Part shown: positions 140 through 62,067 of the stretch, in pieces
How the letters are laid out: each line of letters starts with the position of its first letter
Numbering within the stretch: the stretch's first letter is position 1
DNA from: Treponemataceae bacterium
Lineage (GTDB): Bacteria; Spirochaetota; Spirochaetia; Treponematales; Rectinemataceae
DNA length: 64,000 nucleotides
Assembly: GCA_963678065.2 (NCBI GenBank)
Contig: CAXXVZ010000005.1
Coordinates: 832,001 to 896,000, forward strand
Direction of reading: 5' to 3'
The notes under the pieces: model-generated
Database searches by the model: none
What the model was told of the DNA's origin: nothing
The model's input: the letters and a program-made list of their open reading frames with translations, nothing else
Position numbers and translations under genes: made by a program

Positions 140-278
140 GCCTAACGTTCTGCCTGTTTGCGACGATGGCGCGAGCATCGGCGAGCGCCATTGTGCCTGA
201 GCGGAATGAGCGCATGCGAGTGCAGCGATGGCCGAAGAGGGAGCCTGCGACCGATGAGCGTGAACAGCGCTGTTAGTT
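140..278 (-). repeat. attC site, variant A (29 copies; found only with the ORF-less mini-cassette)
   Basis: gcctAAC gttctgc ctgtttgcg ... cgtgaacag cgct GTTagtt; internal atggcgc/gcgccat stem. Confidence 0.88.
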
Positions 279-403
279 GCAGTCGTGACCTTCGAGCGCG
301 CTTGGATGGGGAGACTTGTCTCTCCATCCAATACTCTATCTTGCGCGCGTTCTTCTCTTCCTCTTTTCTTACCCTTATTTTTTCTTTCACGATTGCAACT
401 AAC
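272..403. repeat. ORF-less mini-cassette type I (~132 bp; 30 copies)
   Basis: gttagttgcagtcgtga...tcacgattgcaactaac. Copies start near 272,529,1962,2220,2477,19616,23771,26433,32116,32372,32631,34961,38537,40586,41788,42044,43010,43268,45438,48245,49166,49687,55890,56147,56404,58658,58917,60145,61485,61744. Confidence 0.92.
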
Positions 404-655
404 GTTCTGCCTGTTTGCGACGATGGCGCGAGCATCGGCGAGCGCCATTGTGCCTGAGCGGAATGAGCGATAGCGAGTGCAGCGATGGCCGAAGAGGGAG
501 CCTGCGACCGATGAGCGTGAACAGCGCTGTTAGTTGCAGTCGTGACCTTCAAGCGCGCTTGGATGGGGAGACTTGTCTCCTCATCCAATACTATATCTTG
601 CGCGCGTTCTTCTCTTTCTCTTTTCTTAACCCTTATTTTTCTCTTTCACGATTGC

Positions 656-797
656 AACTAACGTTCGCCTGCCTACGACGTTGTGGCGAGCATCGGCGAG
701 CCACAATGTGCCTGAGCGGAATGAGCGTCAGCGAGTGCAGCGATGGCCGAAGAAGGAGCCGAAAGGCGACTGATGAGCGTGGGCAGTGCTGTTAGCC
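656..797 (-). repeat. attC site, variant B (commonest with gene cassettes)
   Basis: taAC gttcgc ctgcctacg ... cgtgggcag tgct GTTag; internal ttgtggc/gccacaa stem. Confidence 0.88.
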
Positions 798-831
798 GCT
801 GCCACCTTCGTGTCATCCCAATACTATGTAC

Positions 832-860
832 TTGCTTATAGCAAGCTTTATGTGTATCAT
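832..860 (+). promoter_or_regulatory. Sigma70 promoter of the MarR-GNAT cassette with overlapping operator-like palindrome
   Basis: TTGCTT-17bp-TATCAT; cttgct-tat-agcaag inverted repeat at 831-845; ATG at 869. Confidence 0.6.
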
Positions 861-868
861 TCGTCTAT

Positions 869-1303
869 ATGAGTAGTATCAATGCGGTAAAAGACGTCAG
901 AACATTTAACCGTTTCTATACCAACATCATTGGCGTTATTGACCGTCATATCCTCGATAGTCCGTATTCATTGACTGAAGCAAGAATTCTCTATGAAATC
1001 TATAATAACCATACTATGACAGCTCGAAAAATAAAGAAGTATCTCCACATTGATGAAGGTTATCTGAGTCATGCACTAGAAAAAATGATCAAGAATGGCT
1101 TACTCATACGACAAAAATCCAAAGATGATAGAAGACTCAATCTCTTATCCTTAACTCAGAAGGGTGAAACTGAGTTTTTAGCACTAAGTTTGCGTTCTGA
1201 ACATGCAATTGCATCCCTTATCAAAGATCTGACCGGTAATGAACTAGAAAGGCTCACAGCTGCAATGCGGGAAATTACGTTTTTACTCACCAAAGAGGGG
1301 TAA
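869..1303 (+). CDS. MarR-family transcriptional regulator
   Basis: VRTFNRFYTNIIG, SLTEARILYEI, DDRR..LSLTQKG motifs. Confidence 0.88.
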   Translation: MSSINAVKDVRTFNRFYTNIIGVIDRHILDSPYSLTEARILYEIYNNHTMTARKIKKYLHIDEGYLSHALEKMIKNGLLIRQKSKDDRRLNLLSLTQKGETEFLALSLRSEHAIASLIKDLTGNELERLTAAMREITFLLTKEG

Positions 1304-1307
1304 TCTT

Positions 1308-1805
1308 ATGGTAACACTGGATGATATCACGATTCGAAATGAATTAGTGCCCGGCGACATTGGTTATATAATCTATCTGCATGGACTGCTGTATAGTACA
1401 GAAAATGCTTATGGACTTCAATTTGAAGCATATGTAACCGAAGGTTTGTTAGAATTTGTAAAAAGATACGATCCCTCTATAGATCGTGTATGGGTATGTG
1501 AACACAATACCCATATTGTAGGATTTATTTTGCTCATGCATCGCGATAACAATGCAGCTCAACTACGCTATTTCCTTATCCATCCGCAGTATCGGGGTAT
1601 TGGCTTAGGGAAAAGGCTTATTGAGTTGTATATGCAATTCTTACATCACTGTAACTACAGTACATCATATCTTTGGACAACCACTGAGCAGAAAACCGCT
1701 ATATCCTTATATAGGAGATATGGATTTTGTTTAACCGAGGAAAAAAAGTCATCGTTATTCGGGAAACCTTTACGTGAACAACGTTTTGACTTGGTTATTC
1801 GGTAG
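1308..1805 (+). CDS. GNAT acetyltransferase
   Basis: PGDIGYIIYLHG and AQLRYFLIHPQYRGIGLGKRL motifs. Confidence 0.9.
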   Translation: MVTLDDITIRNELVPGDIGYIIYLHGLLYSTENAYGLQFEAYVTEGLLEFVKRYDPSIDRVWVCEHNTHIVGFILLMHRDNNAAQLRYFLIHPQYRGIGLGKRLIELYMQFLHHCNYSTSYLWTTTEQKTAISLYRRYGFCLTEEKKSSLFGKPLREQRFDLVIR

Positions 1806-2735
1806 AGTTTGGGGGCTCGAAGGTGGTTGCGGCTAACGTTCTGCCTGTTTGCGACGATGGCGCGAGCATCGGCGAGCGCCATTGTGCCTGAGCGGAATGA
1901 GCAGAGCGAGTGCAGCGATGGCCGAAGAGGGAGCTTGCGACCGATGAGCGTGAACAGCGCTGTTAGTTGCAGTCGTGACCTTCGAGCGCGCTTGGATGGG
2001 GAGACTTGTCTCTCCATCCAATACTCTATCTTGCGCGCGTTCTTCTCTTCTTCTTCTCTTACCCTTATTTTTTTCTTTCACGATTGCAACTAACGTTCTG
2101 CCTGTTTGCGACGATGGCGTGAGCATCGGCGAACGCCATTGTGCCTGAGCGGAATGAGCGAATGCGAGTGTAGCGATGGCCGAAGAGGGAGCCTGCGACC
2201 GATGAGCGTGAACAGCGCTGTTAGTTGCAGTCGTGACCTTCGAGCGCGCTTGGATGGGGAGACTTGTCTCCTCATCCAATACTATATCTTGCGCGCGTTC
2301 TTCTCTTCCTCTTCTCTTACCCTTATTTTTTTCTTTCACGATTGCAACTAACGTTCTGCCTGTTTGCGACGATGGCGTGAGCATCGGCGAACGCCATTGT
2401 GCCTGAGCGGAATGAGCAAAGCGAGTGTAGCGATGGCCGAAGAGGGAGCTTGCGACCGATGAGCGTGAACAGCGCTGTTAGTTGCAGTCGTGACCTTCGA
2501 GCGCGCTTGGATGGGGAGACTTGTCTCCTCATCCAATACTCTATCTTGCGCGCGTTCTTCTCTTCCTCTTCTCTTACCCTTATTTTTTCTTTCACGATTG
2601 CAACTAACGTTTGCCTGCCTACGACGTTGTGGCGAGCATCGGCGAGCCACAATGTGCCTGAGCAGAATGAGCGACAGCGAGTGCAGCGATGGCCGAAGAA
2701 GGAGCTGAAGGCGACTGATGAGCGTGGGCAGTGCT

Positions 2736-3348
2736 GTTATGTGCTGTGTTTTTGGGGCACACCCTGTTTCTTCTCTTCATTTCTATAATTCTTATTCCTT
2801 TACTCTTAACCCTTTATCTTTGCATTTTAATACTTTATTCAGATACATACGCACTTTATTTCTCTATACCATAGTTATTTATTTACTTTGACAGTGCCTC
2901 TTTTCTTATATCCTACTACCTATATATTTTATCCTTAAATTCATATTTACGTTTTCGACTATTATAGTTCAGTACATGTTTTTCGATGTTTCCAATTCAA
3001 AAATCTACCATTTTTACTCATAAACCATATAGTAATAATGCCACTACTCAATATGTTTCTATACTTCAAAAATCACATTTTTTAGATTCAAATAGTTCAT
3101 GAGAAAAACAGCAGCATCTTCGAAAGGCGTTTTGAAATCTATGATAATCCTATACCCAGAAATCCTATTTTTTATCTATACCATTTTTGTACTGCATATA
3201 CTACCAACACTGAATATAGCACTGATCCACAATTACTACAGAATTGTGTATAAACCCAATATCAGAAGATTCTATTTTTGAATGCTCTGACGTCATTCAG
3301 AATCATATAGTTTCGCACGAGATCCGCCCCAAAAACATTGCACATAAC
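2736..3348. other. Long ORF-less cassette (family L)
   Basis: AT-rich, no credible ORF; homologous to 9517-10141 and 54266-54896. Confidence 0.75.
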
Positions 3349-3687
3349 GTTTGCCTGCCTACGACGTTGTGGCGAGCATCGGCGAGCCACAATGTGCCTG
3401 AGCGGAACGAGCGCATGCGAGTGCAGCAATTGGAAATGGCAAGTAGTTTTCCCCACCATATGGCAACTAGGAATCCCCACCCGGTAGAGGGTTATTCCTC
3501 CTTCTTTGCAGAGATGCGATATGACTCCCCTGACAGGGAGAAAATCTTTGCGTGATGCATGAGACGATCCAACAGGGCTGCGGTCATAACCTCGTCGCCC
3601 ATGAGTTCTGACCAAGAGTTCAGGTCCTTGTTGCTCGTCACGACGATAGAGGCACGTTCATAGAGATCCGAGACGAAGGTGAAAAAG

Positions 3688-4961
3688 GGCTCTTCGCTGT
3701 TTCATGTGGGTAACTGCCCCAGTTTACCGGCGACAATGTAGGTCATGATCTTGAGATTTTTGATAGTTCGGAATCCTCTGGCTCTGGTCTTTGCTGACTG
3801 AATCAGACTATTCAACGATTCAAGAAGCCCATTTGTCACTCCGGATGTAAGCCACCGAACGACTCCATTCCAGTGTCGTTTGAGCATCGCAGCAAAATTG
3901 ATGATTGGGGTAAGCTGTGATCGTGTTGCCCATACTCTCCATTTTTTAAGTTCTTCTATGGCTCGAGAAGCCGAGAATTCGAAAAGTCCCTTGAAAATGT
4001 TCATCATTCGCCATGCTCGCCCTGTTTTTAACTGTAATCCTGACAAGGTGTTGAGACGGGCCAAATTCTTAACCGACAGATTGTAGGGGTTGCTCAACCA
4101 GACATATTTCGAACCTCTGAGTACCGTTTCCATCGTTGATTCTTCTTTCCGCACGTCGTTGACTGCTTCACCCAGAAGCTTCATGACATGAAACCGATCA
4201 AACGTGAGAGCAGCCTGGGGAAGATGCTCTTCGATCCCGGACATGAACGCCGGCGACATATCGGTACAGACCGTCCGTGATAGCAGTTTTCGAGCCTCCA
4301 TGGGCTTCCAGATGCTCTGTAAAGGCTTTTATAGTGGATGCATCCTTGCCTTCGGTCACATATATGGCTTTCCCTGTATCGAGATCGGCCACAACGGTGA
4401 TGTATGAGTGTCCGCGTTTGGCTGCTGTTTCGTCGATTCCGATTCGTGTGGTTTTCGATAAATCTTGTGTAGCCACGTCTTCGGAAACATAATGGTCCAT
4501 AATTCGCCACACTCGCGTATCGGTGGTAGCTGTCAGTCTGGAAACTGCCTTGACGCTCATTTCCTTGACCATGATCATCATGAGGGCTTCGTACAGCAGG
4601 GTAAATCCCGATCCTTTACGCGCCCACGGGATATCAATCAGATGAACGCCATGCTCAGGACAGTCTATCCGCGGAACTCGTGCATGCAGATAGGCTTCAT
4701 GCTGGAAAAAATTGAGGTGACGCCATGTTTTGGGCATCGTATCGTAGGCTGTACCCTTGTAATCGCAGGAAAAACACGGAAAACGACTCCCGGGCTTGAA
4801 CCCAAGCTGTATATCAAGCCGATGTTCTGTTGGTTTGAACTCTATGTTCTCAACAATCCAGGGTTCAGATAATCCAAGCGCAAGGGCGAATAGTTCTACG
4901 TCTTTCATGCTGCTCATCCTACCATGCTTCCTTGGTTACCCACACGATTCGTTGAAGAGCC
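3688..4961 (-). mobile_element. ISL3-family IS
   Basis: GGCTCTTC ends; 8-bp target duplication tgaaaaag at 3680-3687 and 4962-4969. Confidence 0.92.
3702..4917 (-). pseudogene. ISL3 transposase, frameshifted
   Basis: WRHLNFFQHEAYLHARVPR, IGIDET, DMSPAF, FDRFHV, TNGLLESLNS motifs split over two frames; one extra C at ~4271. Confidence 0.85.
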
Positions 4962-5510
4962 TGAAAAAGAGATTGGCTTCCTTGCGCTCGATAGGAGTGT
5001 AGCCAATCTCATCAATGATCATGAGGTTGGCCTTCGCGAGCCGGCTTAGCCTGAACTGAGCGCTGCGTGCGGCGTCAGAGCGCACGAGGAGCTTCACCAG
5101 TGAGGTCATGCGCTCGTAACAAACCGAATAGCCTTTGCGTACGGCCACATGGCCAAGAGCGATTGCGAGATGGGTCTTTCCGAGTCCAGGAGGCCCGAAG
5201 AGCAGAAGGTTCTCGTGACGGTCTATCCAAGAGCACTCGGTGAGCTCAGAGAGGTCTCGTTTTCCAATTCCTGCTACTCGGCCGAGTTTGAAATCCTCGA
5301 GGCGCTTTACGACGGGAAAATGGGCCATGGCGAGGCCTCGTTTGAGGCGCCTGTCGCCGCGATCCTGTAGTTCGACGTCCACGAGGGTCTCGAGGAAGGC
5401 AAGGCATGTCAGTCCCCCGCTTTCAGCTTGTTTAAGAAGCTCAGGAAGCCGTGACGACGCGCCACGAAGCCGCAGGGACTCCAGTTTACGAGCGGATTCT
5501 GCGAGGGCGC

Positions 5511-7058
5511 TCATTCTTCGTGCCTCTGCGTATCGACGAGCGCGTCGAGGAATCGCTGATACTCGCTGACCGAGCGTGTGGCAACTAGTGGAAGGTCTCT
5601 GGTTTGATGAAGGCCGCGGTACGGCGAAGGCGCCACTGCGGGCACTGGCGTCGTGCTGTTGACCGCGTCGATGAGATCCTGGGCGCTTGCAAGTCCTCTA
5701 TCCAGGCAGAACTTCAATGCAAGCACGAGTTTCTCTCTGTCGATGTTGCGCTTGAGAAGCTTCCGAAGTCGGCCAGCGTGCTCCCGGAAGTAGCGTCGAT
5801 ACTCGGTATAGATACCATCGACGAAGCTCCCCCACTCGGGAAGATCATCTACTGCGGCGACAAGATCCGCGCGGAGCGTTTCCTGGGATCCTTCGCGATC
5901 GCGATAGTGAGCCTTGTCCAGCACCGTTCCGCCGGGTGTTGCCGCTTCGCGATGCGCCGCGATCTGGATACCCGTCTTCGTATCGAATACCAGGATGAGT
6001 CCGTCCTTGCGCTCGATAGTGACCTCGTTGAGCCGGTACGAGTTCGGCACCGAGTACCTGGTCGCGGCGATCGATATAAGGCTTTTCTGATCCACGTTAC
6101 GGCTCTCTCGGCAGCCCGATGCGGTGTCCGCGCGGAAAATAGACGCTCGGAGCGCCCGCAAGACGGGTTTCTCGTGCGCTTCGAAGTCCGCGAGCGGCAT
6201 GAGACGCGTGGCTTGGCTCAGTTTTGCGTTCACTCGTAAGAGCCATTTGCGCATGCCTGCCTGGAGTTCGTCGAAGGTCGCGAAGCTGCGGCTCGAGAAA
6301 TAGCTCGTTTTGACGTATTTGACCGCATTCTCGACCTTTCCTTTCGATTCCGGATCGGCCGCACGGCAGACACGGAGCCGCAGTCCCTGTTCTGCGACGA
6401 ACTCAGCAAAGGCTTTTGTCGTCGTGAGGTCGCCAAGGTTTTCCGTCACAATCATTGTCCGGTCCTGATCCATGACGAGTTCTTCGGTGATACCGCCAAA
6501 AAACTCGAAGGCGTCCAGGAGATGGCCGATCACATCCTCGCTGGTAAAGGGCCTGGATTGGGCCGCTACGTAGCGGTAACGGCTTCGTGAGAGTACTACG
6601 ACAACAAACCAAGCCTTTCCGATGTTCGTCGTCTCTACGCCGAAATCAATCTGAGCCTGCTTGCCGTAGGCCAGAGGCTCCACAGGACGATATTCCCGAC
6701 ACAGGCCCACCTTAATCGCACCGGATGCCTTGAGATACGTCAGGTAGTTCCGCAACGTACGGTCCGAGCCTGGAAGCTCTCCGTATTTCTCGCTTAAGTA
6801 GTCGTGGACGGACGATGAGTAGACCATTCTGCCTTCGTGGTTCTTTTTAAAAATCTCGAGGATTTCGTCCTTGTAGACCGAAAAAGCCTTACCGCGTTCT
6901 GCCATTCGCTCGAGATACCGTAAGAATTGGTCATTGTCCATGCGCAGGTACTTTCTCACGGTCTTGCGGTCCTTGCCAAGTTTTACCGCTAGTGCGCTGA
7001 CTGTGAGTCCTTGCCTGTGCCCTGTTCGTACGATGTTGTAGTCCTTCATGGTACTCAT
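5511..7058 (-). CDS. istA: IS21 transposase IstA
   Basis: HTH N-terminus, QAQIDFG, PESKGKVENAVKYVK, RYSVP motifs; overlaps istB start. Confidence 0.92.
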   Translation of the reverse strand: MSTMKDYNIVRTGHRQGLTVSALAVKLGKDRKTVRKYLRMDNDQFLRYLERMAERGKAFSVYKDEILEIFKKNHEGRMVYSSSVHDYLSEKYGELPGSDRTLRNYLTYLKASGAIKVGLCREYRPVEPLAYGKQAQIDFGVETTNIGKAWFVVVVLSRSRYRYVAAQSRPFTSEDVIGHLLDAFEFFGGITEELVMDQDRTMIVTENLGDLTTTKAFAEFVAEQGLRLRVCRAADPESKGKVENAVKYVKTSYFSSRSFATFDELQAGMRKWLLRVNAKLSQATRLMPLADFEAHEKPVLRALRASIFRADTASGCRESRNVDQKSLISIAATRYSVPNSYRLNEVTIERKDGLILVFDTKTGIQIAAHREAATPGGTVLDKAHYRDREGSQETLRADLVAAVDDLPEWGSFVDGIYTEYRRYFREHAGRLRKLLKRNIDREKLVLALKFCLDRGLASAQDLIDAVNSTTPVPAVAPSPYRGLHQTRDLPLVATRSVSEYQRFLDALVDTQRHEE

Positions 7059-7390
7059 TTCTTGTGCCGCATGCTCGCAAGCATAGCGGCCAAGGCCCCT
7101 GTGGGTGGGGAATCCTATTTGCCAACTGCTGGGGAATTCAGTTTACCATTTCCAGAGCGTATGCGAGTGCAATGAAGGCCGAAGAAGGAGCCGAAGGCGA
7201 CTGATGAGCGTGGGCAGTGCTGTTAGGCGACGTGTTGTTTTGCGTTTCTTCAAAATACACAATTACGTTGATACAGTTGTCAGATGTATTTTATCTACTG
7301 CTTTGCTGTTACCTAAAAATGGGGACTATATCATAAATGATTTCCTACTGATGTTTTAGTCTAATCAATGCTTGAAGTCATCTAAACATA

Positions 7391-7912
7391 CTATGCTGTA
7401 CAATAAGCTTCTTTTATTGACCTAATAGTTTTTAGTGCCCAGTCATAATGGCTGGATGTTGCTGATACTAGATATGCACCTAACGATGTTGTTCCTGTCC
7501 ATGCGTACTTTTTTTTAGTAAATAATTCATCATCACTATGTTTTTGTATTATTTCTATCATTTCTTTATGACTTTTCTTTATTAGCTTTATTGCTTCATT
7601 TAATTCTGTTCCTTTATACTTTTCATAAATTCTATGATTTAGGACAGGCAAGGTTTGCCAGGTAACATCTTCTGCCGGAATAGCTGGCTTCTTGCCGGAC
7701 ATTCCAATTTTATACCAATTCTTCATCATCGAATGCCATTCATGTAAATGACAAATCACATCAGCTATTGTCTTATCTCTATCATTGAGTTCATTATTTT
7801 CGTATGATTTAACTTGATATTCTTTGGGTAGCGATTCAATGAACACTAATAGTTTTGTAAGGTTTTCATCGCCAAGCGACAGTAGCTCTGCTTTGTTGGT
7901 TGGTCTAGGCAT
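7391..7912 (-). CDS. ClbS/DfsB-family (DUF1706) four-helix-bundle protein, copy 1
   Basis: MPRPTNKAELL, RDKTIADVICHLHEWH, TGTTSLGAYLVSATSSHYDWA. Confidence 0.8.
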   Translation of the reverse strand: MPRPTNKAELLSLGDENLTKLLVFIESLPKEYQVKSYENNELNDRDKTIADVICHLHEWHSMMKNWYKIGMSGKKPAIPAEDVTWQTLPVLNHRIYEKYKGTELNEAIKLIKKSHKEMIEIIQKHSDDELFTKKKYAWTGTTSLGAYLVSATSSHYDWALKTIRSIKEAYCTA

Positions 7913-8202
7913 GTAATTCTCCTAAATTAATTCGCGCCAAAGGCGTCCTGTTAACAGCATTTACCGTGATACATATAAACCTATTTGTATAAGTGGTAAA
8001 ACACTAAAATGGTAATCTCTGGAAGGATCGCGCAAAACAATATGTCGCCTAACGTTCGCCTGCCTACGACGTTGTGGCGAGCATCGGCGAGCCACAATGT
8101 GCCTGAATGGAACGAGCGTATGCGAGTGGAGTGAAGGCCGAAGAAGGAGCCGAAGGCGACTGATGAGCGTGGGCAGTGCTGTTAGGTGAAGTTGTTCAGG
8201 CA

Positions 8203-9072
8203 CTATCTCCCGTAATACTCAATTACTTCTCTCGCCCTTCTTGTAATGAACTCATTTTTATCTGTATTTCCGATTGATATTACCAAATCTTTAATCTGAC
8301 GCTCTATTTCCCACGTCGAATCTGGTTTCATTTTGCTTCTTAATAGATCCAACGCTTTCGTAATATGTACCGATTCCACCTTTTCCCGTTTCAAAAGCCA
8401 GAGTATTTCCAGATAATCTCCTTGATACATATTCGGAAATGTAAGCTTTTTTATAGTGGTATGGATAAACGATGTACTATCATGCGAACTGAAGCAAACA
8501 TCATGCAGTAAAATAAAGGCTATACACTGAGCACGTAGCTTTTTAGCATTTTCTGATCGTTTGTTCTCAGGAATAAAGGATAATCCCTTCAAGAGCTTCA
8601 CAATTCCCCAATAACAGGTATGTTTTCCATAGCAACTACGATTCGAACAATACGGAAAGGAAGAAGGAGTCTTGAAATCCCCATCATCAAATCGTTGGTA
8701 GTCTGCAAAAAAGTCTATGATGCTTGTAATAACAGATTCATTTTCAAAATGAAAATATGAATGCACATACAGCATATTCCCATTCAAGCACGGAATTGGG
8801 AAATGAGTTTTCCCCAAAGAGTAAATATTCACGGTTCGATCGAGAAAATGATTTGCTATCGTCTGCAAAGGTCTGATTAGGCTAGTTATTCTATAATCGC
8901 AGTGCATATCAGCTAACAGGATGAGCGTCCATAAGGTGGATTTATAATTGGGTACGTAATAATTCAACGCTGGGTAATGCGTATCCCTTTTATCCAGAAC
9001 GTTCCAACATCCATTTTCATCCTGCAATTCAAGTATCTTTGACGTAAGTGATTGTGCTAAATCTGTAGTCAT
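8203..9072 (-). CDS. Hypothetical protein, prenyltransferase/squalene-cyclase-like repeat fold
   Basis: QDENGCW, PNYKSTLWTL, PCLNGN, LTFPNMYQGDYLEIL; 289-aa ORF fills the cassette. Confidence 0.6.
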   Translation of the reverse strand: MTTDLAQSLTSKILELQDENGCWNVLDKRDTHYPALNYYVPNYKSTLWTLILLADMHCDYRITSLIRPLQTIANHFLDRTVNIYSLGKTHFPIPCLNGNMLYVHSYFHFENESVITSIIDFFADYQRFDDGDFKTPSSFPYCSNRSCYGKHTCYWGIVKLLKGLSFIPENKRSENAKKLRAQCIAFILLHDVCFSSHDSTSFIHTTIKKLTFPNMYQGDYLEILWLLKREKVESVHITKALDLLRSKMKPDSTWEIERQIKDLVISIGNTDKNEFITRRAREVIEYYGR

Positions 9073-9117
9073 ACTGATTTCCCACTAAACGAGTGTGTGG
9101 TGTGCCTGAACAATTTC

Positions 9118-9258
9118 ACCTAACGTATGCCTGCCTGCGACGTTTTGGCCCGCATCGGCGGGACAAAATGTGCTTGAGCGGAACGAGCGAATGCGAGTGA
9201 AGTGAAAGCCGAAGAAGGAGCCGAAGGCGACTGATGAGCGGGGGCAGCGCTGTTATGT
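9118..9258 (-). repeat. attC site, variant D
   Basis: Same frame as other attCs; internal ttttggcc cgcatcggcg ggacaaaa stem. Confidence 0.85.
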
Positions 9259-52566: not shown

Positions 52567-53148
52567 TCATTTCTTCATTTCAAATTTTTCAATTCCTATT
52601 TTCATTTCCTTATTTTTAACCCATTCTTCTTCCAAAATTCCAAATACCATATCGTCTTTCCATTCATTTTGTATCAAAATACTTTTTACAAAATATCCCT
52701 CATTTCTGAACCCAAGATCTTTCAATAATCGTATTGATGCTGTATTGTCTGGATCTACTGACGCAATAACCCTGTGTTTTTTCAAGGATGTAAATATATA
52801 GTCTATAATTGCTTGAACGGATTCTTTTCCAAATCCCTTATGGTGATCCTTTTGCCCTATTGTATACCCAATCTCACATTGTTGATTTTCTGGATCTATA
52901 AAATGAATCCCACTATCTCCAATAATTGTATCTTCATAATAGATCCCGATCTGAAACCATGTATTCACAACATTGAAGAAAAGTGTGTTATTTTTAATGA
53001 ATGATTCCACATCATTGATGGATGTAGGTTTGAAGGACTGAAACTCCATACTTGAAGGATCAGATCGGTATTCAAACATTTTCAAAGAATCTTCCAGAAC
53101 TATATCTTTCAAAACCAAACGGTTTGTCAGAATGTTAATATAGCCCAT
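52567..53148 (-). CDS. GNAT acetyltransferase (RimL type)
   Basis: CEIGYTI...HHKGFGKE, HRVIASVDPDNTASIRLL. Confidence 0.88.
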   Translation of the reverse strand: MGYINILTNRLVLKDIVLEDSLKMFEYRSDPSSMEFQSFKPTSINDVESFIKNNTLFFNVVNTWFQIGIYYEDTIIGDSGIHFIDPENQQCEIGYTIGQKDHHKGFGKESVQAIIDYIFTSLKKHRVIASVDPDNTASIRLLKDLGFRNEGYFVKSILIQNEWKDDMVFGILEEEWVKNKEMKIGIEKFEMKK

Positions 53149-53632
53149 TGTTTTTTCCCTGATCTCGCGCGTTCAAATTTCAGATAACGTTCGCCTGCCT
53201 ACGACGTTGTGGCGAGCATCGGCGAGCCACAATGTGCCTGAATGGAACGAGCGCATGCGAGTGGAGTGAAGGCCGAAGAAGGAGCCGACAGGCGACTGAT
53301 GAGCGTGGGCAGTGCTGTTAGCTGCTGTTGCGTACCCTCTTCGCCTGAACCAAGGACGGCGAAGGCGATTCATACTATGTATCAGAATCTTACCATATTC
53401 CAATCTATCATTCTTTTCTCTAAATTTTCATTTTCTTTATTTGCTTCTATTTCTAATATAGAGCTTGAACACTTATCTGCAGATAACATTACTTATGTAT
53501 CTTTCCATCAATCATTTTTGATATTTCGACATTTGTATTCCAACGACCATTTCTCATCGTTATTGATTTTGCAGATATCTGATGTCCATTATACTCCATC
53601 GTTCTATCAACTCTTAATGCAGTATTTAAATA

Positions 53633-54067
53633 CTACTTCAATGTGTTTGTCTTTTTATAATAGATTATCTCAGGATCATTATAGTCAAGATTATTTATAA
53701 CACCGGATTCAACATAACCATTTTTGTGTAGCATCATTTTCATTGGATAATTACTAGAATTCGTTGAAGTAAATACTTCTCCAGTATTTTCAAATGACTC
53801 AAAATATTTGATTAGTTTATCTCCCAATCCTTTCCTTTGATGATCCTTATGAATAATCAATTGATTAATAAATCTCTTTCCAAAGAAATGAGTAGAAAAT
53901 ATAAGAAATCCTTGAATCTTTTCATTTTCAAGAATAACTAAACATTGTTTGCTATTAATGGATTCTAAAATATCACTTCGCCCATTGAATGAACCAATAA
54001 CAGAATAATCAACATCACAAATTTCTGAGATATCTTCATTTTGGGCTAGTTTTATGACATATTCCAC
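53633..54067 (-). CDS. GNAT acetyltransferase
   Basis: IHKDHQRKGLG, VFTSTNSSNYPM, DPEIIYYK; probable GTG start. Confidence 0.8.
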   Translation of the reverse strand: MEYVIKLAQNEDISEICDVDYSVIGSFNGRSDILESINSKQCLVILENEKIQGFLIFSTHFFGKRFINQLIIHKDHQRKGLGDKLIKYFESFENTGEVFTSTNSSNYPMKMMLHKNGYVESGVINNLDYNDPEIIYYKKTNTLK

Positions 54068-54265
54068 ACCAATTCCTTTATTGTTGTGCGCCAGAACGTG
54101 TGCGTTTTGGGCAGTTGGGTACGCAATAGCAGCTAACGTTCGCCTGCCTACGACGTTGTGGCGAGCATCGGCGAGCCACAATGTGCCTGAATGGAGCGAG
54201 CGCATGCGAGTGCAATGAAGGCCGAAGAAGGAGCCGATAGGCGACTGATGAGCGTGGGCAGTGCT

Positions 54266-54896
54266 GTTATGTGCTGTGTTTTTGGGGCACACCCTGTGTC
54301 TTCTCTTCATTTCTATAATTCTTATTCCTTGGTTCTTTACTCTTAACCCTTTGTCTTTGCTTTTCAATACTTTATTCTAATACATAAGTATTTTATTTCT
54401 CTATACCATAGCTATTTATATACTTTGACCTTGCCTCTTTTATCGTATCCTGTTACCTATATATTTTATCCCTAACTTTATATTTATGGTTCGACTATTA
54501 TAGTTCAGTACACGTTTTTCGATGTTTCCAATTCAAAAATCTATCATTTTTACTCATAAACCATATAGTACATAATACCACTCAATATTTTTCTCTACTT
54601 CAAAATCACTTTTTTTGGATTCACCTATTTCATGGGACATATCTTATGAGAAAAATAGCAGCACCTTCGAAAAGCGTTTTGAACTCTATGATTATCCCAT
54701 ACTCAAGAATAGTATCTTTTATCTATACCATTTTTTGTACTGCACATACCAACAACACTGAATATGGCACTGATCCACAATTACTACAGGATTGTTCATA
54801 AACCCAATATCAAGAGATTCTATTTTTAAATACTATGATGTCATTCAGAATCATACAGTTCAGTAAGAGATCCGCCCCAAAAACATTGCACATAAC
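54266..54896. other. Long ORF-less cassette (family L)
   Basis: Homologous to 2736-3348 and 9517-10141. Confidence 0.75.
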
Positions 54897-55097
54897 GTTC
54901 GCCTGCCTACGACGTTGTGGCGAGCATCGGCGAGCCACAATGTGCCTGAGCGGAATGAGCGCATGCGAGTGCAGCGATGGCCGAAGAAGGAGCCGACAGG
55001 CGACTGATGAGCGTGGGCAGTGCTGTTAGCTGATGGTTTGCCCCCCATCTATATCTTTTCTTTTCCCTCTTCACCTTATTCATTGTTCTTCACTATC

Positions 55098-55607
55098 TTA
55101 TATCTTTACCCAATAGTAACAATGTTCATGTTCTATCTTTTCCAATACCCCATTATTCCATTCTATTACTTTCCGTGATCCACTGTTCTTTTCATCACAG
55201 GTTATCAATACATCATTTATATTGAGTTTCTTTATTTCGCTCAATGTCAATTCCAATAACTTCTTCCCATATCCCTTATTCCGTTGTTCTTTCCGAATCC
55301 CATATCCTATATGCCCACCATGGGCACGCAATTTATCGGTTAAGTAATGCCTCATTTTTGAATACCCTAGCACTTCTTCATCATCCATAAGCCAATATAT
55401 TGTTTGTGGCACATATCCTTTTTCAAGCTCAGGAGCTTCATACTGCGCAATAAGTTTTTCGATATATCCTGGATATTCTTCCCATGAGATCCCATATCCA
55501 CCATTCATGAATCCATTTTCTTCTTGATCAATCGATTGTAGCATCTGATAAATGTTTCTATTCGTTGTATCACGTTCAGAAACCTTCTGAAGATAAATCC
55601 TACCCAT
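55098..55607 (-). CDS. GNAT acetyltransferase, copy 2
   Basis: Paralog of 12227-12736. Confidence 0.9.
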   Translation of the reverse strand: MGRIYLQKVSERDTTNRNIYQMLQSIDQEENGFMNGGYGISWEEYPGYIEKLIAQYEAPELEKGYVPQTIYWLMDDEEVLGYSKMRHYLTDKLRAHGGHIGYGIRKEQRNKGYGKKLLELTLSEIKKLNINDVLITCDEKNSGSRKVIEWNNGVLEKIEHEHCYYWVKI

Positions 55608-56750
55608 AATAATTCCTTAAAAGAACAATACTGCATCACACAATCAAATAGTGCAAACCATATGTAAATTCACTATCCAAAGTCTCAAGCCGATACTACA
55701 GTTCATGCACTTTGAAAACAGTGGTATCGGCCTATCTGATCTCGGGGGGCAAACTTTCAGCTAACGTTCTGCCTGTTTGCGACGATGGCGTGAGCATCGG
55801 CGAACGCCATTGTGCCTGAGCGGAATGAGCAAAGCGAGTGTAGCGATGGCCGAAGAGGGAGCTTGCGACCGATGAGCGTGAACAGCGCTGTTAGTTGCAG
55901 TCGTGACCTTCGAGCGCGCTTGGATGGGGAGACTTGTCTCCTCATCCAATACTCTATCTTGCGCGCGTTCTTCTCTTCCTCTTCTCTTACCCTTATTTTT
56001 TCTTTCACGATTGCAACTAACGTTCTGCCTGTTTGCGACGATGGCGCGAGCATCGGCGAGCGCCATTGTGCCTGAGCGGAATGAGCGACAGCGAGTGCAG
56101 CGATGGCCGAAGAGGGAGCTTGCGACCGATGAGCGTGAACAGCGCTGTTAGTTGCAGTCGTGACCTTCGAGCGCGCTTGGATGGGGAGACTTGTCTCCCC
56201 ATCCAATGCTATATCTTGCGCGCGTTCTTCTCTTCCTCTTCTCTTACCCTTATTTTTTTCTTTCACGATTGCAACTAACGTTCTGCCTGTTTGCGACGAT
56301 GGCGTGAGCATCGGCGAGCGCCATTGTGCCTGAGCGGAATGAGCGGAGCGAGTGAAGCGATGGCCGAAGAGGGAGCCTGCGACCGATGAGCGTGAACAGC
56401 GCTGTTAGTTGCAGTCGTGACCTTCGAGCGCGCTTGGATGGGGAGACTTGTCTCCTCATCCAATGCTATATCTTGCGCGCGTTCTTCTCTTCCTCTTCTC
56501 TTACCCCTATTTTTTTCTTTCACGATTGCAACTAACGTATGCCTGCCTGCGACGTTTTGGCCCGCATCGGCGGGACAAAATGTGCCTGAATGAAACGAGC
56601 GAATGCGAGTGGAATGAAGACCGAAGAAGGAGCCGAAGGCGACTGATGAGCGTGGGCAGCGCTGTTAGCTGCTTTACGAATCGCTCTTCATCAATATCTT
56701 TGTTTCTAATATTCGGAGCGCGCAGTGTACATGTAAATAGTTTTCTGTAT

Positions 56751-57560
56751 TTATCGTTTCAAAATGCTTTCAATCTTTTTCTTTTTTAGTTCTATCATTT
56801 TTGATATAAATTGATCATATTCTTCTGAAGGATAAAAAAGGTTTGGAATAAATTCACGGCTTTTAACTGTCATTGGATTAATGCTTTCCATAAGCTTACT
56901 CACAGTTGATGACCAGATATCATTTTCATATGTAACATTATATTTCCCTTTTTCAATTTGCTTATATAATATTTTAAGTTGTGAAAAATGTTCTTCCAAT
57001 TTCAACTCAGTTGAACTACTATAACCATTCCTAATTCTTTCTGTGATTATTTGCTGTATCTGTTCATAATTAGCTTCTTCTGTATTTACGTTACTCCTAA
57101 CATAGATTCGATTTTTAGCTAATTCTTCACCATCACATTCAGCAACAAATGGTATGTACTCCTTTTCATAATTTACAAATATTACTTGGAATTTTTTTCC
57201 AACTAATTTCCCATATTCACTATCAGCATATATAAAATCAACAATCTCATATCTTAAGTTTTTAGGTAAATATTTTTGAATACTTTTCCCAATAACTGTT
57301 TTATCTTCAACCTTGGTTAAGCCAATTGATTCCAAACTTCCATCATTGTTTTGTTTTACTCCAAAAATTAAAGCGCCATCTCCAGTATTAGCAATTCCTA
57401 AAATATGTTTAGCAATTTTTGAATAGGAACAATAATCTTGCTTAAAATCTAAATCATTAAATTCACCAAGATTGTTTTTTAGTAGATCACGCAATTTTGT
57501 TCTATTTGGATCATCAAAGAAATTAAAAAAATCTTCTTTAAAGCTTTTTTTTGTCTCCAT
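56751..57560 (-). CDS. AlbA_2/Schlafen-domain protein
   Basis: GEFNDLDFKQ, IAKHILGIANTGDGALIFGV, IYVRSN. Confidence 0.82.
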   Translation of the reverse strand: METKKSFKEDFFNFFDDPNRTKLRDLLKNNLGEFNDLDFKQDYCSYSKIAKHILGIANTGDGALIFGVKQNNDGSLESIGLTKVEDKTVIGKSIQKYLPKNLRYEIVDFIYADSEYGKLVGKKFQVIFVNYEKEYIPFVAECDGEELAKNRIYVRSNVNTEEANYEQIQQIITERIRNGYSSSTELKLEEHFSQLKILYKQIEKGKYNVTYENDIWSSTVSKLMESINPMTVKSREFIPNLFYPSEEYDQFISKMIELKKKKIESILKR

Positions 57561-57865
57561 TATTTTTTCTCCTAAACATTTTCTCAATTAATACATGAAC
57601 CATACAGACGAAGAATAGGACGCTATGAGAAGTCTCAACTCTCGCGATTCGTATTGCAGCTAACGTTCGCCTGCCTACGACGTTGTGGCGAGCATCGGCG
57701 AGCCACAATGTGCCTGAGCGGAATGAGCGCATGCGAGTGCAGCGATGGCCGAAGAAGGAGCCGACAGGCGACTGATGAGCGTGGGCAGTGCTGTTAGCTG
57801 ATGGTTTGCCCCCCATCTATATCTTTTCTTTTCCCTCTTCACCTTATTCATTGTTCTTCACTATC

Positions 57866-58375
57866 TTATATCTTTACCCAATAGTAACAATGTTCATGTT
57901 CTATCTTTTCCAATACCCCATTATTCCATTCTATTACTTTCCGTGATCCACTGTTCTTTTCATCACAGGTTATCAATACATCATTTATATTGAGTTTCTT
58001 TATTTCGCTCAATGTCAATTCCAATAACTTCTTCCCATATCCCTTATTCCGTTGTTCTTTCCGAATCCCATATCCTATATGCCCACCATGGGCACGCAAT
58101 TTATCGGTTAAGTAATGCCTCATTTTTGAATACCCTAGCACTTCTTCATCATCCATAAGCCAGTATATTGTTTGTGGCACATATCCTTTTTCAAGCTCAG
58201 GAGCTTCATACTGCGCAATAAGTTTTTCGATATATCCTGGATATTCTTCCCATGAGATCCCATATCCACCATTCATGAATCCATTTTCTTCTTGATCAAT
58301 CGATTGTAGCATCTGATAAATGTTTCTATTCGTTGTATCACGTTCAGAAACCTTCTGAAGATAAATCCTACCCAT
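57866..58375 (-). CDS. GNAT acetyltransferase, copy 3
   Basis: Protein identical to 55098-55607. Confidence 0.9.
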   Translation of the reverse strand: MGRIYLQKVSERDTTNRNIYQMLQSIDQEENGFMNGGYGISWEEYPGYIEKLIAQYEAPELEKGYVPQTIYWLMDDEEVLGYSKMRHYLTDKLRAHGGHIGYGIRKEQRNKGYGKKLLELTLSEIKKLNINDVLITCDEKNSGSRKVIEWNNGVLEKIEHEHCYYWVKI

Positions 58376-59178
58376 AATAATTCCTTAAAAGAACAATACT
58401 GCATCACACAATCAAATAGTGCAAACCATATGTAAATTCACTATCCAAAGTCTCAAGCCGATACTACAGTTCATGCACTTTGAAAACAGTGGTATCGGCC
58501 TATCTGATCTCGGGGGGCAAACTTTCAGCTAACGTTCTGCCTGTTTGCGACGATGGCGTGAGCATCGGCGAGCGCCATTGTGCCTGAGCGGAATGAGCGG
58601 AGCGAGTGAAGCGATGGCCGAAGAGGGAGCCTGCGACCGATGAGCGTGAACAGCGCTGTTAGTTGCAGTCGTGACCTTCGAGCGCGCTTGGATGGGGAGA
58701 CTTGTCTCCTCATCCAATGCTATATCTTGCGCGCGTTCTTCTCTTCCTCTTCTCTTACCCCTATTTTTTTCTTTCACGATTGCAACTAACGTTCTGCCTG
58801 TTTGCGACGATGGCGTGAGCATCGGCGAGCGCCATTGTGCCTGAGCGGAATGAGCGCATGCGAGTGCAGCGAATGGCCGAAGAGGGAGCTTGCGACCGAT
58901 GAGCGTGAACAGCGCTGTTAGTTGCAGTCGTGACCTTCGAGCGCGCTTGGATGGGGAGACTTGTCTCCCCATCCAATGCTATATCTTGCGCGCGTTCTTC
59001 TCTTCTTCTTCTCTTACCCTTATTTTTTTCTTTCACGATTGCAACTAACGTTCGCCTGCCTACGACGTTGTGGCGAGCATCGGCGAGCCACAATGTGCCT
59101 GAGCGGAATGAGCGATAGCGAGTGCAGCGATGGCCGAAGAAGGAGCCGAAAGGCGACTGATGAGCGTGGGCAGTGCTG

Positions 59179-59976
59179 TTAGGTGCTGTTTTTCGGGCTA
59201 ACCTGGATCCTATCCCGTATCGTTTCTATTTTCTCTTTTGCCTTTTTTAGAAACGTTTTATTCTCTTCTCCATTTTTAGTTACTACTTCTAATGTATAGA
59301 TTCCCGTATATGTTTTCGGAAATTTCTGTATCATCATATCCCACTCAATAATTCCTTCATCAGGCAACCAATGCGAATCATTAATTCCATCATTATCTGA
59401 TAAATGCACACATAACAATTTATCTTTATACGTTTCTACTATTTCATAAGGAGTACGTGCATATAATTTGTCATGAGAACTATCATAACAGAAACCTAAA
59501 TACTCTGAATGTATGGTTTCATATATTTTATCAAGAAGAATAGGAACTCTGGTATTTTCAAGCGCAATTTTTACATTTTTATCTTCAGCTAACTTTACCA
59601 GATCGTGTAGTATACTGATTCCAGAATCGTTTATTTCCTGTATCTGATACCCTTTCGATATATGCATCACCAGTATTGGAATGGCATGTTTTGAACAAAA
59701 CTCTATATACGTTCTATATTCATTTTTTATACTATTTGCCTTAACAGTATCCAATGACCATATATCATTACATGCATCAAATGGAATATGAGCATTTTCA
59801 AGAAAGAGCCCAGAATCCCGGACTATATACGGCATATCATCCATTTTGTTATGTTTCACCAAGGAATCTTCTTCCCCAATCCACATGGATGTTGCATCAA
59901 AACCTGTTTCTTTTATGGAACTGATTCTCTCTATAAACGGCTTATCTATTCCATACCAAGAAAATATTCCAATCAT
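59179..59976 (-). CDS. Sugar phosphate isomerase/epimerase (TIM barrel)
   Basis: KIALENT, GFCYDSSH, VHLSDNDG..DSHWLP; stop in the attC R'' box. Confidence 0.85.
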   Translation of the reverse strand: MIGIFSWYGIDKPFIERISSIKETGFDATSMWIGEEDSLVKHNKMDDMPYIVRDSGLFLENAHIPFDACNDIWSLDTVKANSIKNEYRTYIEFCSKHAIPILVMHISKGYQIQEINDSGISILHDLVKLAEDKNVKIALENTRVPILLDKIYETIHSEYLGFCYDSSHDKLYARTPYEIVETYKDKLLCVHLSDNDGINDSHWLPDEGIIEWDMMIQKFPKTYTGIYTLEVVTKNGEENKTFLKKAKEKIETIRDRIQVSPKNST

Positions 59977-60420
59977 TTTATTGTTACCCCTAGAGGCAGC
60001 CCGAAAAATTGCACCTAACGTTCTGCCTGTTTGCGACGATGGCGTGAGCATCGGCGAACGCCATTGTGCCTGAGCGGAATGAGCGCATGCGAGTGGAGCG
60101 ATGGCCGAAGAGGGAGCCTGCGACCGATGAGCGTGAACAGCGCTGTTAGTTGCAGTCGTGACCTTCGAGCGCGCTTGGATGGGGAGACTTGTCTCCCCAT
60201 CCAATACTATATCTTGCGCGCGTTCTTCTCTTCCTCTTCTCTTAACCCTTATTTTTTCTTTCACGATTGCAACTAACGTTTTGTGCCTCTGACGTTTCGG
60301 ACCGCATCGGCGGGCCGAAATGTGCCTGAGTGGAGTGAGCGAATGCGAGCGGAACGATGGCCGAAGAGCCCTGAAAGGGCGATGAGCAGGGGCACGGTGT
60401 TATGCGCTGTTATTTTATTT

Positions 60421-60933
60421 TTATTTTGGATTGATATAAATAGTCCAATAGTTTTCACTACTATTACTCTCTATGCATAATATTATCTGTAATTTTTCTG
60501 GCATAGATAGCATCATCCATCCGGTTCTTCCTGATTTATAAGTTACTTGGCCGGAAGATAATATATTTTTACCTAATTTGCTTCCCTTTGGAATCATTGA
60601 AATTGCTGGCGCTTTCCCTGCATCAACATATTTCATTCCATCAAGAAATGGAATATAAGAATTATCATTATAAAATACTGTAGATTTTTCCCAAATAATT
60701 CGCGCTATAGATAAAGAATTATTTGCAATACTTACTTCAACCCACCCAATACCTGGTTTGTCATCTAAGGGGAATTGATATTCTATATGCGGAATAGTGA
60801 CAGTTACTCCTGAACTTTTTTTCTCACTTTCAACAACAATGTTAAAATCGCTAGTATTTCTCCATTGAAAATCTTGTGCAAACAAAATTTGAGTTGCAAA
60901 AAATATTAATCCAATAAATGCAATCTTTTTCAT
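60421..60933 (-). CDS. Hypothetical secreted protein
   Basis: Signal peptide MKKIAFIGLIFFATQILFA-QD. Confidence 0.7.
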   Translation of the reverse strand: MKKIAFIGLIFFATQILFAQDFQWRNTSDFNIVVESEKKSSGVTVTIPHIEYQFPLDDKPGIGWVEVSIANNSLSIARIIWEKSTVFYNDNSYIPFLDGMKYVDAGKAPAISMIPKGSKLGKNILSSGQVTYKSGRTGWMMLSMPEKLQIILCIESNSSENYWTIYINPK

Positions 60934-62067
60934 ATATCCCTTCTTTTTATAAAAATATGAAGCCTCCAACGGAGGCAATATTAAGCGATATTTATTAATA
61001 TTACAGATGAAACCCATATGATTATAGACATAATATTTTATTTTGTCATGTTTACAAATACGATCTCATAATAATCGTAATGACATAATGAAATTGAAGC
61101 ACGAAATTTAAAATGTACTTATGCATATATAACTAATATAATTTTAATTGCACGAATTAAATATCTTACTTAGTTTGTAAACATTTAATAATGTATTACT
61201 GGTTTTTCATTAGCAAGACAACGTGAGTTACAATATTCCCCAATGAACACAAGGTAAATTCAAGAGTCATGTTGTGCTAAAAAAGAAAGAGTTAGTAACA
61301 AACAACATTTTTAAGTGACATAAGGTATATTTTAAAAAAATAAAATAATTGCGCATAACGTTCTGCCTGTTTGCGACGATGGCGCGAGCATCGGCGAGCG
61401 CCATTGTGCCTGAGCGAAACGAGCGCATGCGAGTGCAGCGATGGCCGAAGAGGGAGCCTGCGACCGATGAGCGTGAACAGCGCTGTTAGTTGCAGTCGTG
61501 ACCTTCGAGCGCGCTTGGATGGGGAGACTTGTCTCCTCATCCAATACTCTATCTTGCGCGCGTTCTTCTCTTCCTCTTTTCTTACCCTTATTTTTTTCTT
61601 TCACGATTGCAACTAACGTTCTGCCTGTTTACGACGATGGCGTGAGCATCGGCGAGCGCCATTGTGCCTGAGCGGAATGAGCGCATGCGAGTGCAGCGAT
61701 GGCCGAAGAGGGAGCCTGCGACCGATGAGCGTGAACAGCGCTGTTAGTTGCAGTCGTGACCTTCGAGCGCGCTTGGATGGGGAGACTTGTCTCTCCATCC
61801 AATACTATATCTTGCGCGCGTTCTTCTCTTCCTCTTCTCTTACCCTTATTTTTTCTTTCACGATTGCAACTAACGTTCGCCTGCCTACGACGTTGTGGCG
61901 AGCATCGGCGAGCCACAATGTGCCTGAGCGGAATGAGCGACAGCGAGTGCAGCGAAGGCCGAAGAAGGAGCCGATAGGCGACTGATGAGCGTGGGCAGTG
62001 CTGTTAGGCGCCGTTATCTATTTATATCTATACAATTCTAATGTCAGATATTGCATTTTCTAGTTAC

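Follow-up and report, generated by a model that had tools for sequence, protein, structure and literature searches.

A folded, gene-less mini-cassette amplified in an integron-like array of a Treponemataceae bacterium

The array and its recombinase

The window, that is the whole stretch of 64,000 nucleotides analysed (1..64000), covers the central third of a cassette array of 179 sites on the - strand (G000:C5, about 754700-931571). Both the attI-like site and the recombinase are located about 36 kb past the right end of the window. For the attI-like half-site, at C5 about 931571, a matching motif can be read by eye in 10 relatives; the layout of the site, about 11-6-11, is dif-like. The recombinase, P0001 (C5:931895-933076, - strand), is co-oriented with the array. 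When aligned with the genome's own IntI, it does not feature the I2 insertion, and it scores 197 bits, against a TIGR02249 cut-off of 265.

The attC-like sites are hairpins with R and L boxes, biased toward the bottom strand: an ungapped L stem of 8–9 bp, with no extrahelical base in the L box, is found on the + strand in 157 of 170 cores, while on the - strand the stem is 5 bp or shorter in all 170. Array cassettes also bear their own inverted ends, 17–25 bp long, flanked on the inner side by pyrimidine-rich sequences (69% and 66% C+T on the + strand, versus 57% at mid-cassette, in 87 gene-sized cassettes). The cassettes are AT-rich and the genes they carry are of TA, GNAT and HEPN type, toxin-antitoxin cassettes being many.

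The initial annotation had taken the array for an integron. Because its head recombinase lacks the I2 insertion and scores below the TIGR02249 cut-off, the array is integron-like rather than canonical. Contig C3 carries a canonical IntI that has an attC class of its own; the two classes were unmixed in our searches, and the C3 enzyme could act in trans on the array. Noise in the GC skew prevented the array from being positioned with respect to replication. The host may be a free-living spirochaete, FlaA being uninformative for typing it. A hammerhead-like CTGATGAG in attC-B was rejected, being devoid, by eye, of a matching core and missing from attC-A; no Rfam match was obtained.

Distribution and folding of the M1 unit

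A gene-less unit of 257 bases (range 253–262 bp), here indicated as M1, makes up 30 of the 79 complete cassettes (38%) within the window, and 52 of the 179 (29%) across the whole 177-kb array. The copy number in the window had already been reported, and is confirmed by exact search, where both M1 17-mers give exactly 30 matches, on the + strand, at the same places; a share of nearly 40%, in contrast, holds for the window and not for the array. By BLAST over the whole genome, the 52 full-length matches all fall within C5:764357-931571, with no copy outside the array and no target-site duplication. The cassette adjoining the attI-like site is an M1 copy. M1 junctions feature the crossover motif, TAAC followed by GT(T/A), in 49 of the 50 copies with a full core.

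All window copies lie on the - strand. Tandem pairs are found at 147..662, 41661..42175, 42886..43401, 58534..59049 and 61360..61874, and runs of three at 1838..2608, 31990..32763 and 55766..56536. Single copies are located at 19492..19748, 23641..23902, 26308..26565, 34836..35092, 38412..38669, 40461..40717, 45313..45569, 48119..48377, 49563..49818 and 60020..60277. One more, at 49040..49297 (body 49166-49297), is the sole window copy with a non-A attC; the other 29 of the 30 carry variant A. The body is indeed ORF-less, as first described: the longest in-body ORF is 20–40 aa, none exceeds 150 bp, and frames from every start codon differ so widely in length among the 52 copies that none is conserved.

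In the first copy, the attC variant A core (147..271, - strand, between TAAC and GTT) forms an ungapped 9-bp L stem, without extrahelical base, on the + (bottom) strand. The body (272..403, - strand) folds on the + strand into a 17-bp terminal stem, P1 (272-288 with 387-403), with a G.T pair at position 11; an inner stem, P2 (296-301 with 343-348); a 14-bp hairpin, P3 (302-315 with 318-331); and a bulge (332-342), followed by a pyrimidine tract (349-386). When two M1 copies were folded as + strand DNA, the body scored a z of about -7 to -8 against dinucleotide shuffles, and of -6.5 to -9.3 when the terminal stem is removed, in agreement with the structured body originally proposed.

Some details of that proposal need correction. 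The hairpin exists on the + strand, but is 14 rather than 13 bp long. Its variants keep Watson-Crick or G.T pairing in 51 of 52 copies (15 perfect, 36 with one G.T on the + strand), the remaining one, in the middle of the run at 31990..32763, having an A.C mismatch (window 32372). The 17-bp terminal stem is a general trait: 117 of 122 complete non-M1 cassettes have inverted repeats of at least 15 bp (median 22) at their ends, and the G.T at position 11 on the + strand occurs in 160 of 174 complete cassettes. The G.T wobbles of both P1 and P3 lie on the + strand, and in attC-A one stem pair varies as C-G (17 copies), T-A (15), T.G (14) and C.A (2; Fisher p 0.005, the copies not being independent). 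Pairing thus favours the + strand, which is the attC bottom strand.

Two rarer cassettes, M2 (1 copy) and M3 (3 copies), have the size and the inner fold of M1 with a different sequence. Two M3 copies, overlooked by the initial annotation, fall in the window on the - strand, at 9125..9389 (attC core 9125-9251, body 9252-9389) and 49298..49562 (body 49425-49562). Covariation is seen: in the fold shared by M1, M2 and M3, both partners have changed in 16 of 37 pairs, including 10 of the 14 in P3, although this comparison involves three lineages only and does not discriminate between RNA and single-stranded DNA.

Relationships among copies and occurrence elsewhere

Among 48 full M1 units, 38 sequences are distinct, and five identical copies lie dispersed. 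Tandem neighbours are not more alike than other pairs (9.7 versus 10.3 differences; 13 pairs, p 0.70). Tandem runs, found where they had been indicated, are as frequent as expected by chance (15 M1-M1 adjacencies observed, 14.8 expected), and no depletion of three-copy runs is visible. The four-gamete test is positive for 118 of 171 site pairs. M1 copies came singly, at random ranks, and were scrambled by recombination or conversion.

Words of the stretch are found in 20 public runs from 12 studies, six of which contain half or more of them. A pattern scan of metagenome contigs gave 99 matches, only one of them real: this contig, L143, carries a tandem M1 on the opposite side of a cassette common to the present array. 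In DNA run X5 the M1 body reaches a depth of about 40, versus about 2–4 for flank contigs, contig depth being no measure of copy number; in run X16, a head-to-tail 257-nt contig is as well explained by a circle as by a tandem pair. In the RNA runs, M1 contigs are nowhere near 52-fold deeper than scattered housekeeping contigs, contig depth being, again, no measure of level or copy number.

In 68 other family genomes, most of them fragmented assemblies, model R1 of the M1 fold found no instance among the 48 candidates scored per genome; nor did it in the loci of 17 relatives or in two other loci of the same genome. Only weak end-stem matches were seen, in G636 and G039. By DNA search of 60 relatives, parts of attC were detected in two and the M1 body in none. 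The attC search of 400 genomes of the class, with two candidates scored in each, found none; of 38 pattern matches in viral contigs none passes R1, and plasmids gave no M1 DNA match. A GTDB-wide scan with P0001 alone returned two loci, without an array.

In the distant relative G636, seven of the 17 array cassettes belong to one gene-less family of 147–150 bp, unrelated to M1, whose inner fold is weaker and different. Three of the seven stand first at attI, and the family was counted as a convergent case for a selfish reading.

Possible roles of M1 and comparison with known systems

M1 shares the crossover motifs of gene cassettes, has its own attC subtype, holds the newest position next to the attI-like site and is found only within the array; with crossover motifs, an attC-like site and paralogous copies within one array, it corresponds in these respects to an amplified non-coding cassette family. 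We lean, by a small measure, toward M1 being a minimal cassette of selfish, near-neutral character that spread through independent insertions by the recombinase, with selection for its single-stranded circle in folded form. The integrase-propagated parasite of the initial annotation is retained, as the best reading, for a structured unit without a gene but with an attC subtype of its own, whose movement by the recombinase we infer, indirectly, from its first rank at the attI-like site, its random ranks and its different order in L143.

The adjacent I2-less tyrosine recombinase P0001 would excise and re-insert M1, selection acting on the folded bottom (+) strand. Replicative resolution (cassette duplication by replication is proposed in PMC3458562) would add copies, as would uptake from the pool of cassettes in the population. 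The 17-bp end stem is predicted to clamp attC-A into the recombinogenic shape when M1 is a 257-nt circle: in three M1 circles, predicted pairing is 0.97–0.98 for the R box and 0.61–0.67 for L. In the array, the body ends are predicted to pair with each other, masking both flanking R boxes: in 22 single copies P1 pairs at 0.94 and the copy's own R box at 0.00. At the attC to the right of M1, predicted R-box pairing is 0.00 (18 sites), versus a mean of 0.30 in 30 controls (p 0.0005). This lock is predicted for equilibrium, and the control attCs are themselves weakly folded in long context (median 0.04). A low folding probability lowers excision in PMC5371416. M1 may thus behave as a ratchet, easy to insert and hard to remove; tandem runs, at whose junctions R-box pairing is predicted at 0.90 (10 junctions), would be the likely source of new circles, and the inner P2/P3 rod and the pyrimidine tract may keep the remaining strand from invading attC. 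Size and fold alone fail to explain 52 copies, because M2 and M3 are alike yet rare; in two folded M3 circles the attC did not form (R 0.13 and 0.02). Moreover, attC-A reaches lower folding values than the other attCs, including when self-closed (L 0.60 versus 0.80–0.83).

The predicted masking of R boxes to the right of M1 is also what would be expected of a recombination brake or spacer, kept because it slows the loss of neighbouring gene cassettes and so benefits the host, and the conservation of the fold across three lineages, together with the convergent family in G636, would fit it. Yet placement is random, in 15 adjacencies M1 guards only another M1, and many toxin-antitoxin cassettes are already in the array; such a role, although compatible with the selfish one, seems unlikely as the explanation. 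A regulatory cassette is equally unlikely: M1 would then encode a small structured RNA, transcribed from the + strand and thus antisense to the array, or hold an internal promoter or terminator. Promoter activity in gene-less Vibrio and oral Treponema cassettes, and an sRNA in a Xanthomonas cassette, are reported in 10.1101/2023.11.21.568050 and PMC6557892; G.U-type wobbles on the + strand suit an antisense RNA as well as DNA, and M1 contigs occur in all three RNA libraries examined, where DNA or read-through is possible. Three tandem copies, however, feature neither a sigma-70 promoter nor an intrinsic terminator, no Rfam match falls on M1 at E up to 5 (window 1-10000), and 52 randomly placed copies exceed the need of an RNA gene. 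The + strand bias, besides, is common to the attC and ends of nearly all cassettes, and therefore points to a DNA substrate.

An empty chassis for making new gene cassettes should look like M1, which ends in inverted repeats and has pyrimidine-rich inner flanks, as is general for cassettes; this early suggestion is nevertheless very improbable, since none of 127 non-M1 cassettes shares the M1 end beyond 9 nt (three share just those 9), and half of attC-A is found in a single non-M1 cassette, a chimera. That M1 is an assembly artefact, a local slippage repeat, a MITE or a small-peptide gene is scarcely credible: tandem runs and 17-bp terminal inverted repeats are present, but the units are mostly distinct, interspersed with unique cassettes and no more alike when adjacent, words of the stretch recur in an independent contig and in the public runs, frame lengths vary, and the lack of both target duplication and genome-wide dispersal tells, as the initial annotation had foreseen, against a MITE.

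Returning to the selfish cassette, the fixed 14-bp P3 with its 11–13-nt bulge looks more specific than passive folding needs. A bolder version, offered tentatively and less probable than its simpler form, is that M1, M2 and M3 are minimal, self-locking DNA parasites, defined by their fold, and that they live on a second, undescribed kind of integron, characterized by an I2-less Xer-like recombinase, attCs without extrahelical bases and long, cassette-specific inverted ends. The nearly fully paired circle would be an ideal integration substrate; the inserted form would mask both sides, accumulate and freeze its neighbours; and the stem with its bulge would be a shape recognized by a host or element protein.

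Since 2006 it has been unsettled if amplified non-coding cassettes are selfish or useful. M1, which can be synthesized at 257 bp, offers a case for testing this: M2 and M3 are natural variants of its structure, its attC is private, and the prediction of easy insertion and hard removal is concrete. Among natural substrates it is also the smallest on which to ask if an I2-less recombinase can run a 179-cassette array. The I2 helix is held necessary for cassette capture in PMC7790495, and no I2-less cassette platform was found described in the literature searched, most subscription papers and bioRxiv supplements being outside its scope.

Canonical integrons, especially the reverse type of Treponema (PMC3607928), share with this array a co-oriented tyrosine recombinase, an attI-like site, AAC/GTT-bounded hairpin sites and AT-rich cassettes whose genes are of TA, GNAT and HEPN type; they differ in the I2 insertion, the extrahelical bases of the L stem and the absence of own 17–25-bp inverted cassette ends. 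The promoter-bearing cassettes of Vibrionaceae and oral Treponema are, like M1, gene-less and found in chromosomal arrays, which in Treponema have the same co-oriented integrase layout (10.1101/2023.11.21.568050 and PMC6557892); M1, unlike them, has no sigma-70 consensus, is GC-stemmed and is highly repeated. An empty Xanthomonas cassette also occurs several times in one array, but in a canonical integron and with a function just suggested, the comparison being made without a structural description (10.1101/2025.06.18.660453).

The amplification of M1, for which the initial annotation knew of no precedent, has one in Vibrio: according to Boucher et al. 2006 (PMC1382264), a single non-coding family accounts for 45 of the 219 cassettes of one V. 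vulnificus strain and for 34 of the 187 of another, and gene conversion, selfishness and a promoter or RNA role are proposed there. As with M1, one gene-less family is amplified, with high identity, within one array. The M1 share is higher (52/179), its body very small, and its recombinase and attC non-canonical; its private attC subtype and its fold, kept with compensatory change in three lineages, set it further apart, in a comparison made without a structural description of the Vibrio families. Amplified empty cassettes being already known from Vibrio, what M1 adds is a fold kept across unrelated sequences, in an unusual integron-like system.

Census of the array and of M1

The source genome (5.27 Mb, 5 contigs, 58–62% GC) contains 180 sites matching a profile of the inter-cassette repeats: 179 form one co-oriented array on contig C5, about 754700-931571, and a single partial site lies on C2. 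Fifty-six of the 179 array cassettes have a body under 200 bp, and 52 of these are M1, the gene-less mini-cassette of about 257 bp, which totals 13.1 of the 176.9 kb; no ORF of 70 aa is found in 65 of the 179 bodies. The full-length BLAST matches of M1 are all inside the array (52 out of 52), where M1 is also the first cassette, adjoining the attI-like site. Within the window, which spans C5:832001-896000, M1 makes up 30 of 79 cassettes, and the 30 copies initially counted are confirmed, each terminal 17-mer having 30 exact matches on the + strand. The private attC proposed for M1 is borne out as well: the body-proximal end of this subtype, attC-A, is present in 49 of the 50 M1 with an intact core and in no other cassette, while its other half occurs in one non-M1 cassette.

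Bigger gene-less cassette families (507-724 bp) are also repeated, at window 2736-3348, 9517-10141 and 54266-54896 (7 array copies), with further ones at 42302-42885 and 48504-49039. The cassette at window 791-1837 carries MarR and GNAT genes, both oriented against the array. A GC-rich hairpin motif (CGGCCGGAGGCCCGG type) is located just inside one or both ends of several gene cassettes (window 13021-14026, 29113-31093 and others), and in relatives. Five attC sites are split centrally by insertions of 2.4-3.7 kb (window 3431-7155; C5:761855, 788044, 822896, 796681), which look like attC-targeting IS; four of the five have their ends in common, and the one in the window contains IS21-family genes with a nested ISL3.

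Fold and strand bias of the M1 body

On the + strand, the M1 body folds into a 17 bp stem, P1, and a 6 bp stem, P2, stacked on a 14 bp one, P3, with an 11-nt bulge and a 38-nt pyrimidine tract. P1, initially listed among the traits of M1, is not peculiar to it: inverted ends of their own are found in 117 of 122 complete non-M1 cassettes (median 22 bp). A G.T at position 11 on + is present in 160 of 174 cassettes, and pyrimidine-rich inner flanks are general in the array. The special part of M1 is the inner rod, not P1.

The same architecture, with other sequences, is featured by two rarer mini-cassettes, M2 (one copy, C5:804589) and M3 (three copies, two in the window). When 5 of the 52 M1 are aligned with M2 and the three M3, both sides change in 16 of 37 pairs, 10 of 14 in P3, which is always 14 bp; slid controls give 1-6. 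The paired change that the initial annotation proposed to look for is therefore present, and is suggestive of a fold kept across lineages rather than statistical proof, because the lineages are three and the structure was drawn from those same sequences.

Pairing of the hairpin on +, Watson-Crick or G.T, is kept as first described in 51 of 52 M1 copies: in P3, 36 are G.T, 15 perfect and one A.C. At one stem pair of attC-A, C.A is avoided (2 of 48). Of 170 cores, 157 have an ungapped L stem of 8-9 bp on +; on - no L stem exceeds 5 bp. Selection on single-stranded DNA is the simplest reading of this bias, since + is the attC bottom strand; antisense RNA would give the same pattern.

Spread of M1 and its possible roles

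Copies were compared on 48 aligned full M1 units, omitting four (two IS-split, two with chimeric or foreign attC). An assembly artefact is largely ruled out: 38 of the 48 are distinct; a metagenome contig, the one real match among 99 pattern matches in such contigs, has tandem M1 flanking the opposite side of a cassette that the C5 array also contains; and 20 public runs from 12 studies hold words from a stretch of three copies (half or more of them in 6 of the 20), with contigs covering the M1 body in all four of those examined. The junctions consist of crossover motifs and show no target duplication, which excludes a MITE, and frame lengths vary widely from every start codon, which excludes a peptide gene; none of the three objections set beforehand holds.

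Tandem neighbours (13 pairs, 9.7 differing columns) are no more alike than any pair (10.3; p 0.70), M1 copies adjoin one another as often as shuffling predicts (15 adjacencies against 14.8), and five identical copies are scattered (divergence versus distance, rho -0.04). The runs thus reflect independent insertions that came to lie side by side by chance rather than slippage. Of 171 site pairs, 118 are positive in the four-gamete test, indicating recombination, conversion or recurrent mutation. The three-M1 run at C5:814514-815432 is bounded by two reciprocal chimeric attCs, as if it had entered as a multimer through a crossover mid-attC.

In three M1 circles, folded with DNA parameters, predicted pairing is 0.97-0.98 for the R box and 0.61-0.67 for the L box of attC. 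In array context, folded with 140-nt flanks at a random 80 of the 169 sites, the two ends of a single M1 pair with each other (0.94), leaving the R box at 0.00 in its own attC (22) as well as in the one flanking its other end (18); control R boxes have mean 0.30 and median 0.04 (30), and tandem M1 junctions remain folded (0.90; 10). For canonical integrons, a passage of PMC3458562 proposes that cassettes are duplicated by replicative recombination, and one of PMC5371416 describes poorly folding attCs as excising less. On this basis M1 may behave as an easy-in, hard-out ratchet, the folded circle entering readily and the array form resisting removal. Against it, the foldings are predictions for equilibrium, M2 and M3 share the design yet are rare, attC is unfolded in two M3 circles, the best-folding attC subtype is not attC-A, and runs of three M1 are not depleted. 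That M1 in particular swept may be history.

Other gene-less cassettes offer a precedent for a role as promoter or RNA, as presented in parts of 10.1101/2023.11.21.568050 and PMC6557892, but M1 features no sigma-70 or terminator consensus and no Rfam match. M1 contigs occur in RNA runs, with strand and level unreadable; a 257-nt head-to-tail contig in run X16 could stem from a circle or from a tandem. The purine-rich sense strand might let M1 pass transcription harmlessly, because cassettes can be polar (so a section of PMC11511950). A host-useful brake on cassette loss would use the same end-pairing lock as the ratchet, but sits badly with the random placement of M1. The empty chassis for new cassettes, initially suggested, fails: no gene cassette has M1 ends.

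The recombinase platform and known systems

The array runs on the - strand from a co-oriented tyrosine recombinase, P0001 (C5:931895-933076), with HARP-like, SAM-like and catalytic domains. Its score of 197 bits falls short of the 265 set as cut-off for integron integrases, and it has no I2 insertion, unlike the true IntI on C3. P0001 has relatives in 15 of the 68 family genomes and in 20 of the 400 from the phylum. Thirteen of the family loci were fetched: in six, the attC class is shared or cassettes with inverted ends follow downstream, another five stop just past an attI-like site and the beginning of a cassette, and two have none; for 13 of the 20 phylum loci, the cassettes are at least two in six, one candidate in five and none in two. 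P0001 and its relatives (L045-L058, L255-L273) are I2-less and HARP-bearing, with an 11-6-11 attI-like site; each of their cassettes has inverted ends of its own (17-25 bp), and the attC sites carry no extrahelical bases. The platform is widespread in the phylum sample. As part of PMC7790495 has it, I2 is needed for cassette capture and reads extrahelical bases; here its absence coincides with attCs devoid of them and with long paired ends, which could provide a more duplex-like arm. Literature searches found no published description of such an I2-less platform, whose importance possibly exceeds that of M1. A conserved non-coding motif around GATCCTGTTTCGGCGGAC lies between recombinase and attI-like site in L047, L049, L051 and L054-L057, and L045, L050, L058 and the source genome have a form akin to it; it may be the promoter region of the cassettes, or a small RNA.

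The genome has another integron, a canonical one (IntI of 450 bits, C3:96956-98140; downstream to about 125000), of a distinct attC class, with scattered sites at C3 about 2366000-2370600, C3:823319-823430 and C2 about 660700. Searches found neither its class in the C5 array nor the C5 class in the C3 array. Compared with a canonical integron, the M1 array differs in two tested features and is otherwise built alike.

In G636, a genome of the same phylum and another family, 7 of 17 complete cassettes belong to one gene-less family of 147-150 bp (76-89% identity to the query copy), with three copies first at attI and an inner fold weaker than, and different from, that of M1; we regard it as convergence. 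Five more cassettes there (176-313 bp) have no ORF above 51 aa. This array (G636:C25, about 3174500-3185100; L258) is rich in short gene-less cassettes, its distal half being inverted relative to the recombinase. Another relative, G086, has a 299-bp cassette (L049:5996-6294) that seems to be structured and to lack a gene; by R1, the search model built on the M1 fold, it is unrelated to M1.

Amplification of this kind, for which no comparable array was initially known, has precedent: in the portion of Boucher et al. 2006 (PMC1382264) drawn on here, one non-coding family accounts for 45 of the 219 cassettes in one V. vulnificus strain and for 34 of the 187 in another, with selfishness, promoters and RNA already named; M1 is of the same kind. 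Amplified non-coding cassette families are already known, while the fold conservation of M1 across lineages, its private attC, the predicted self-lock and the I2-less setting are new.
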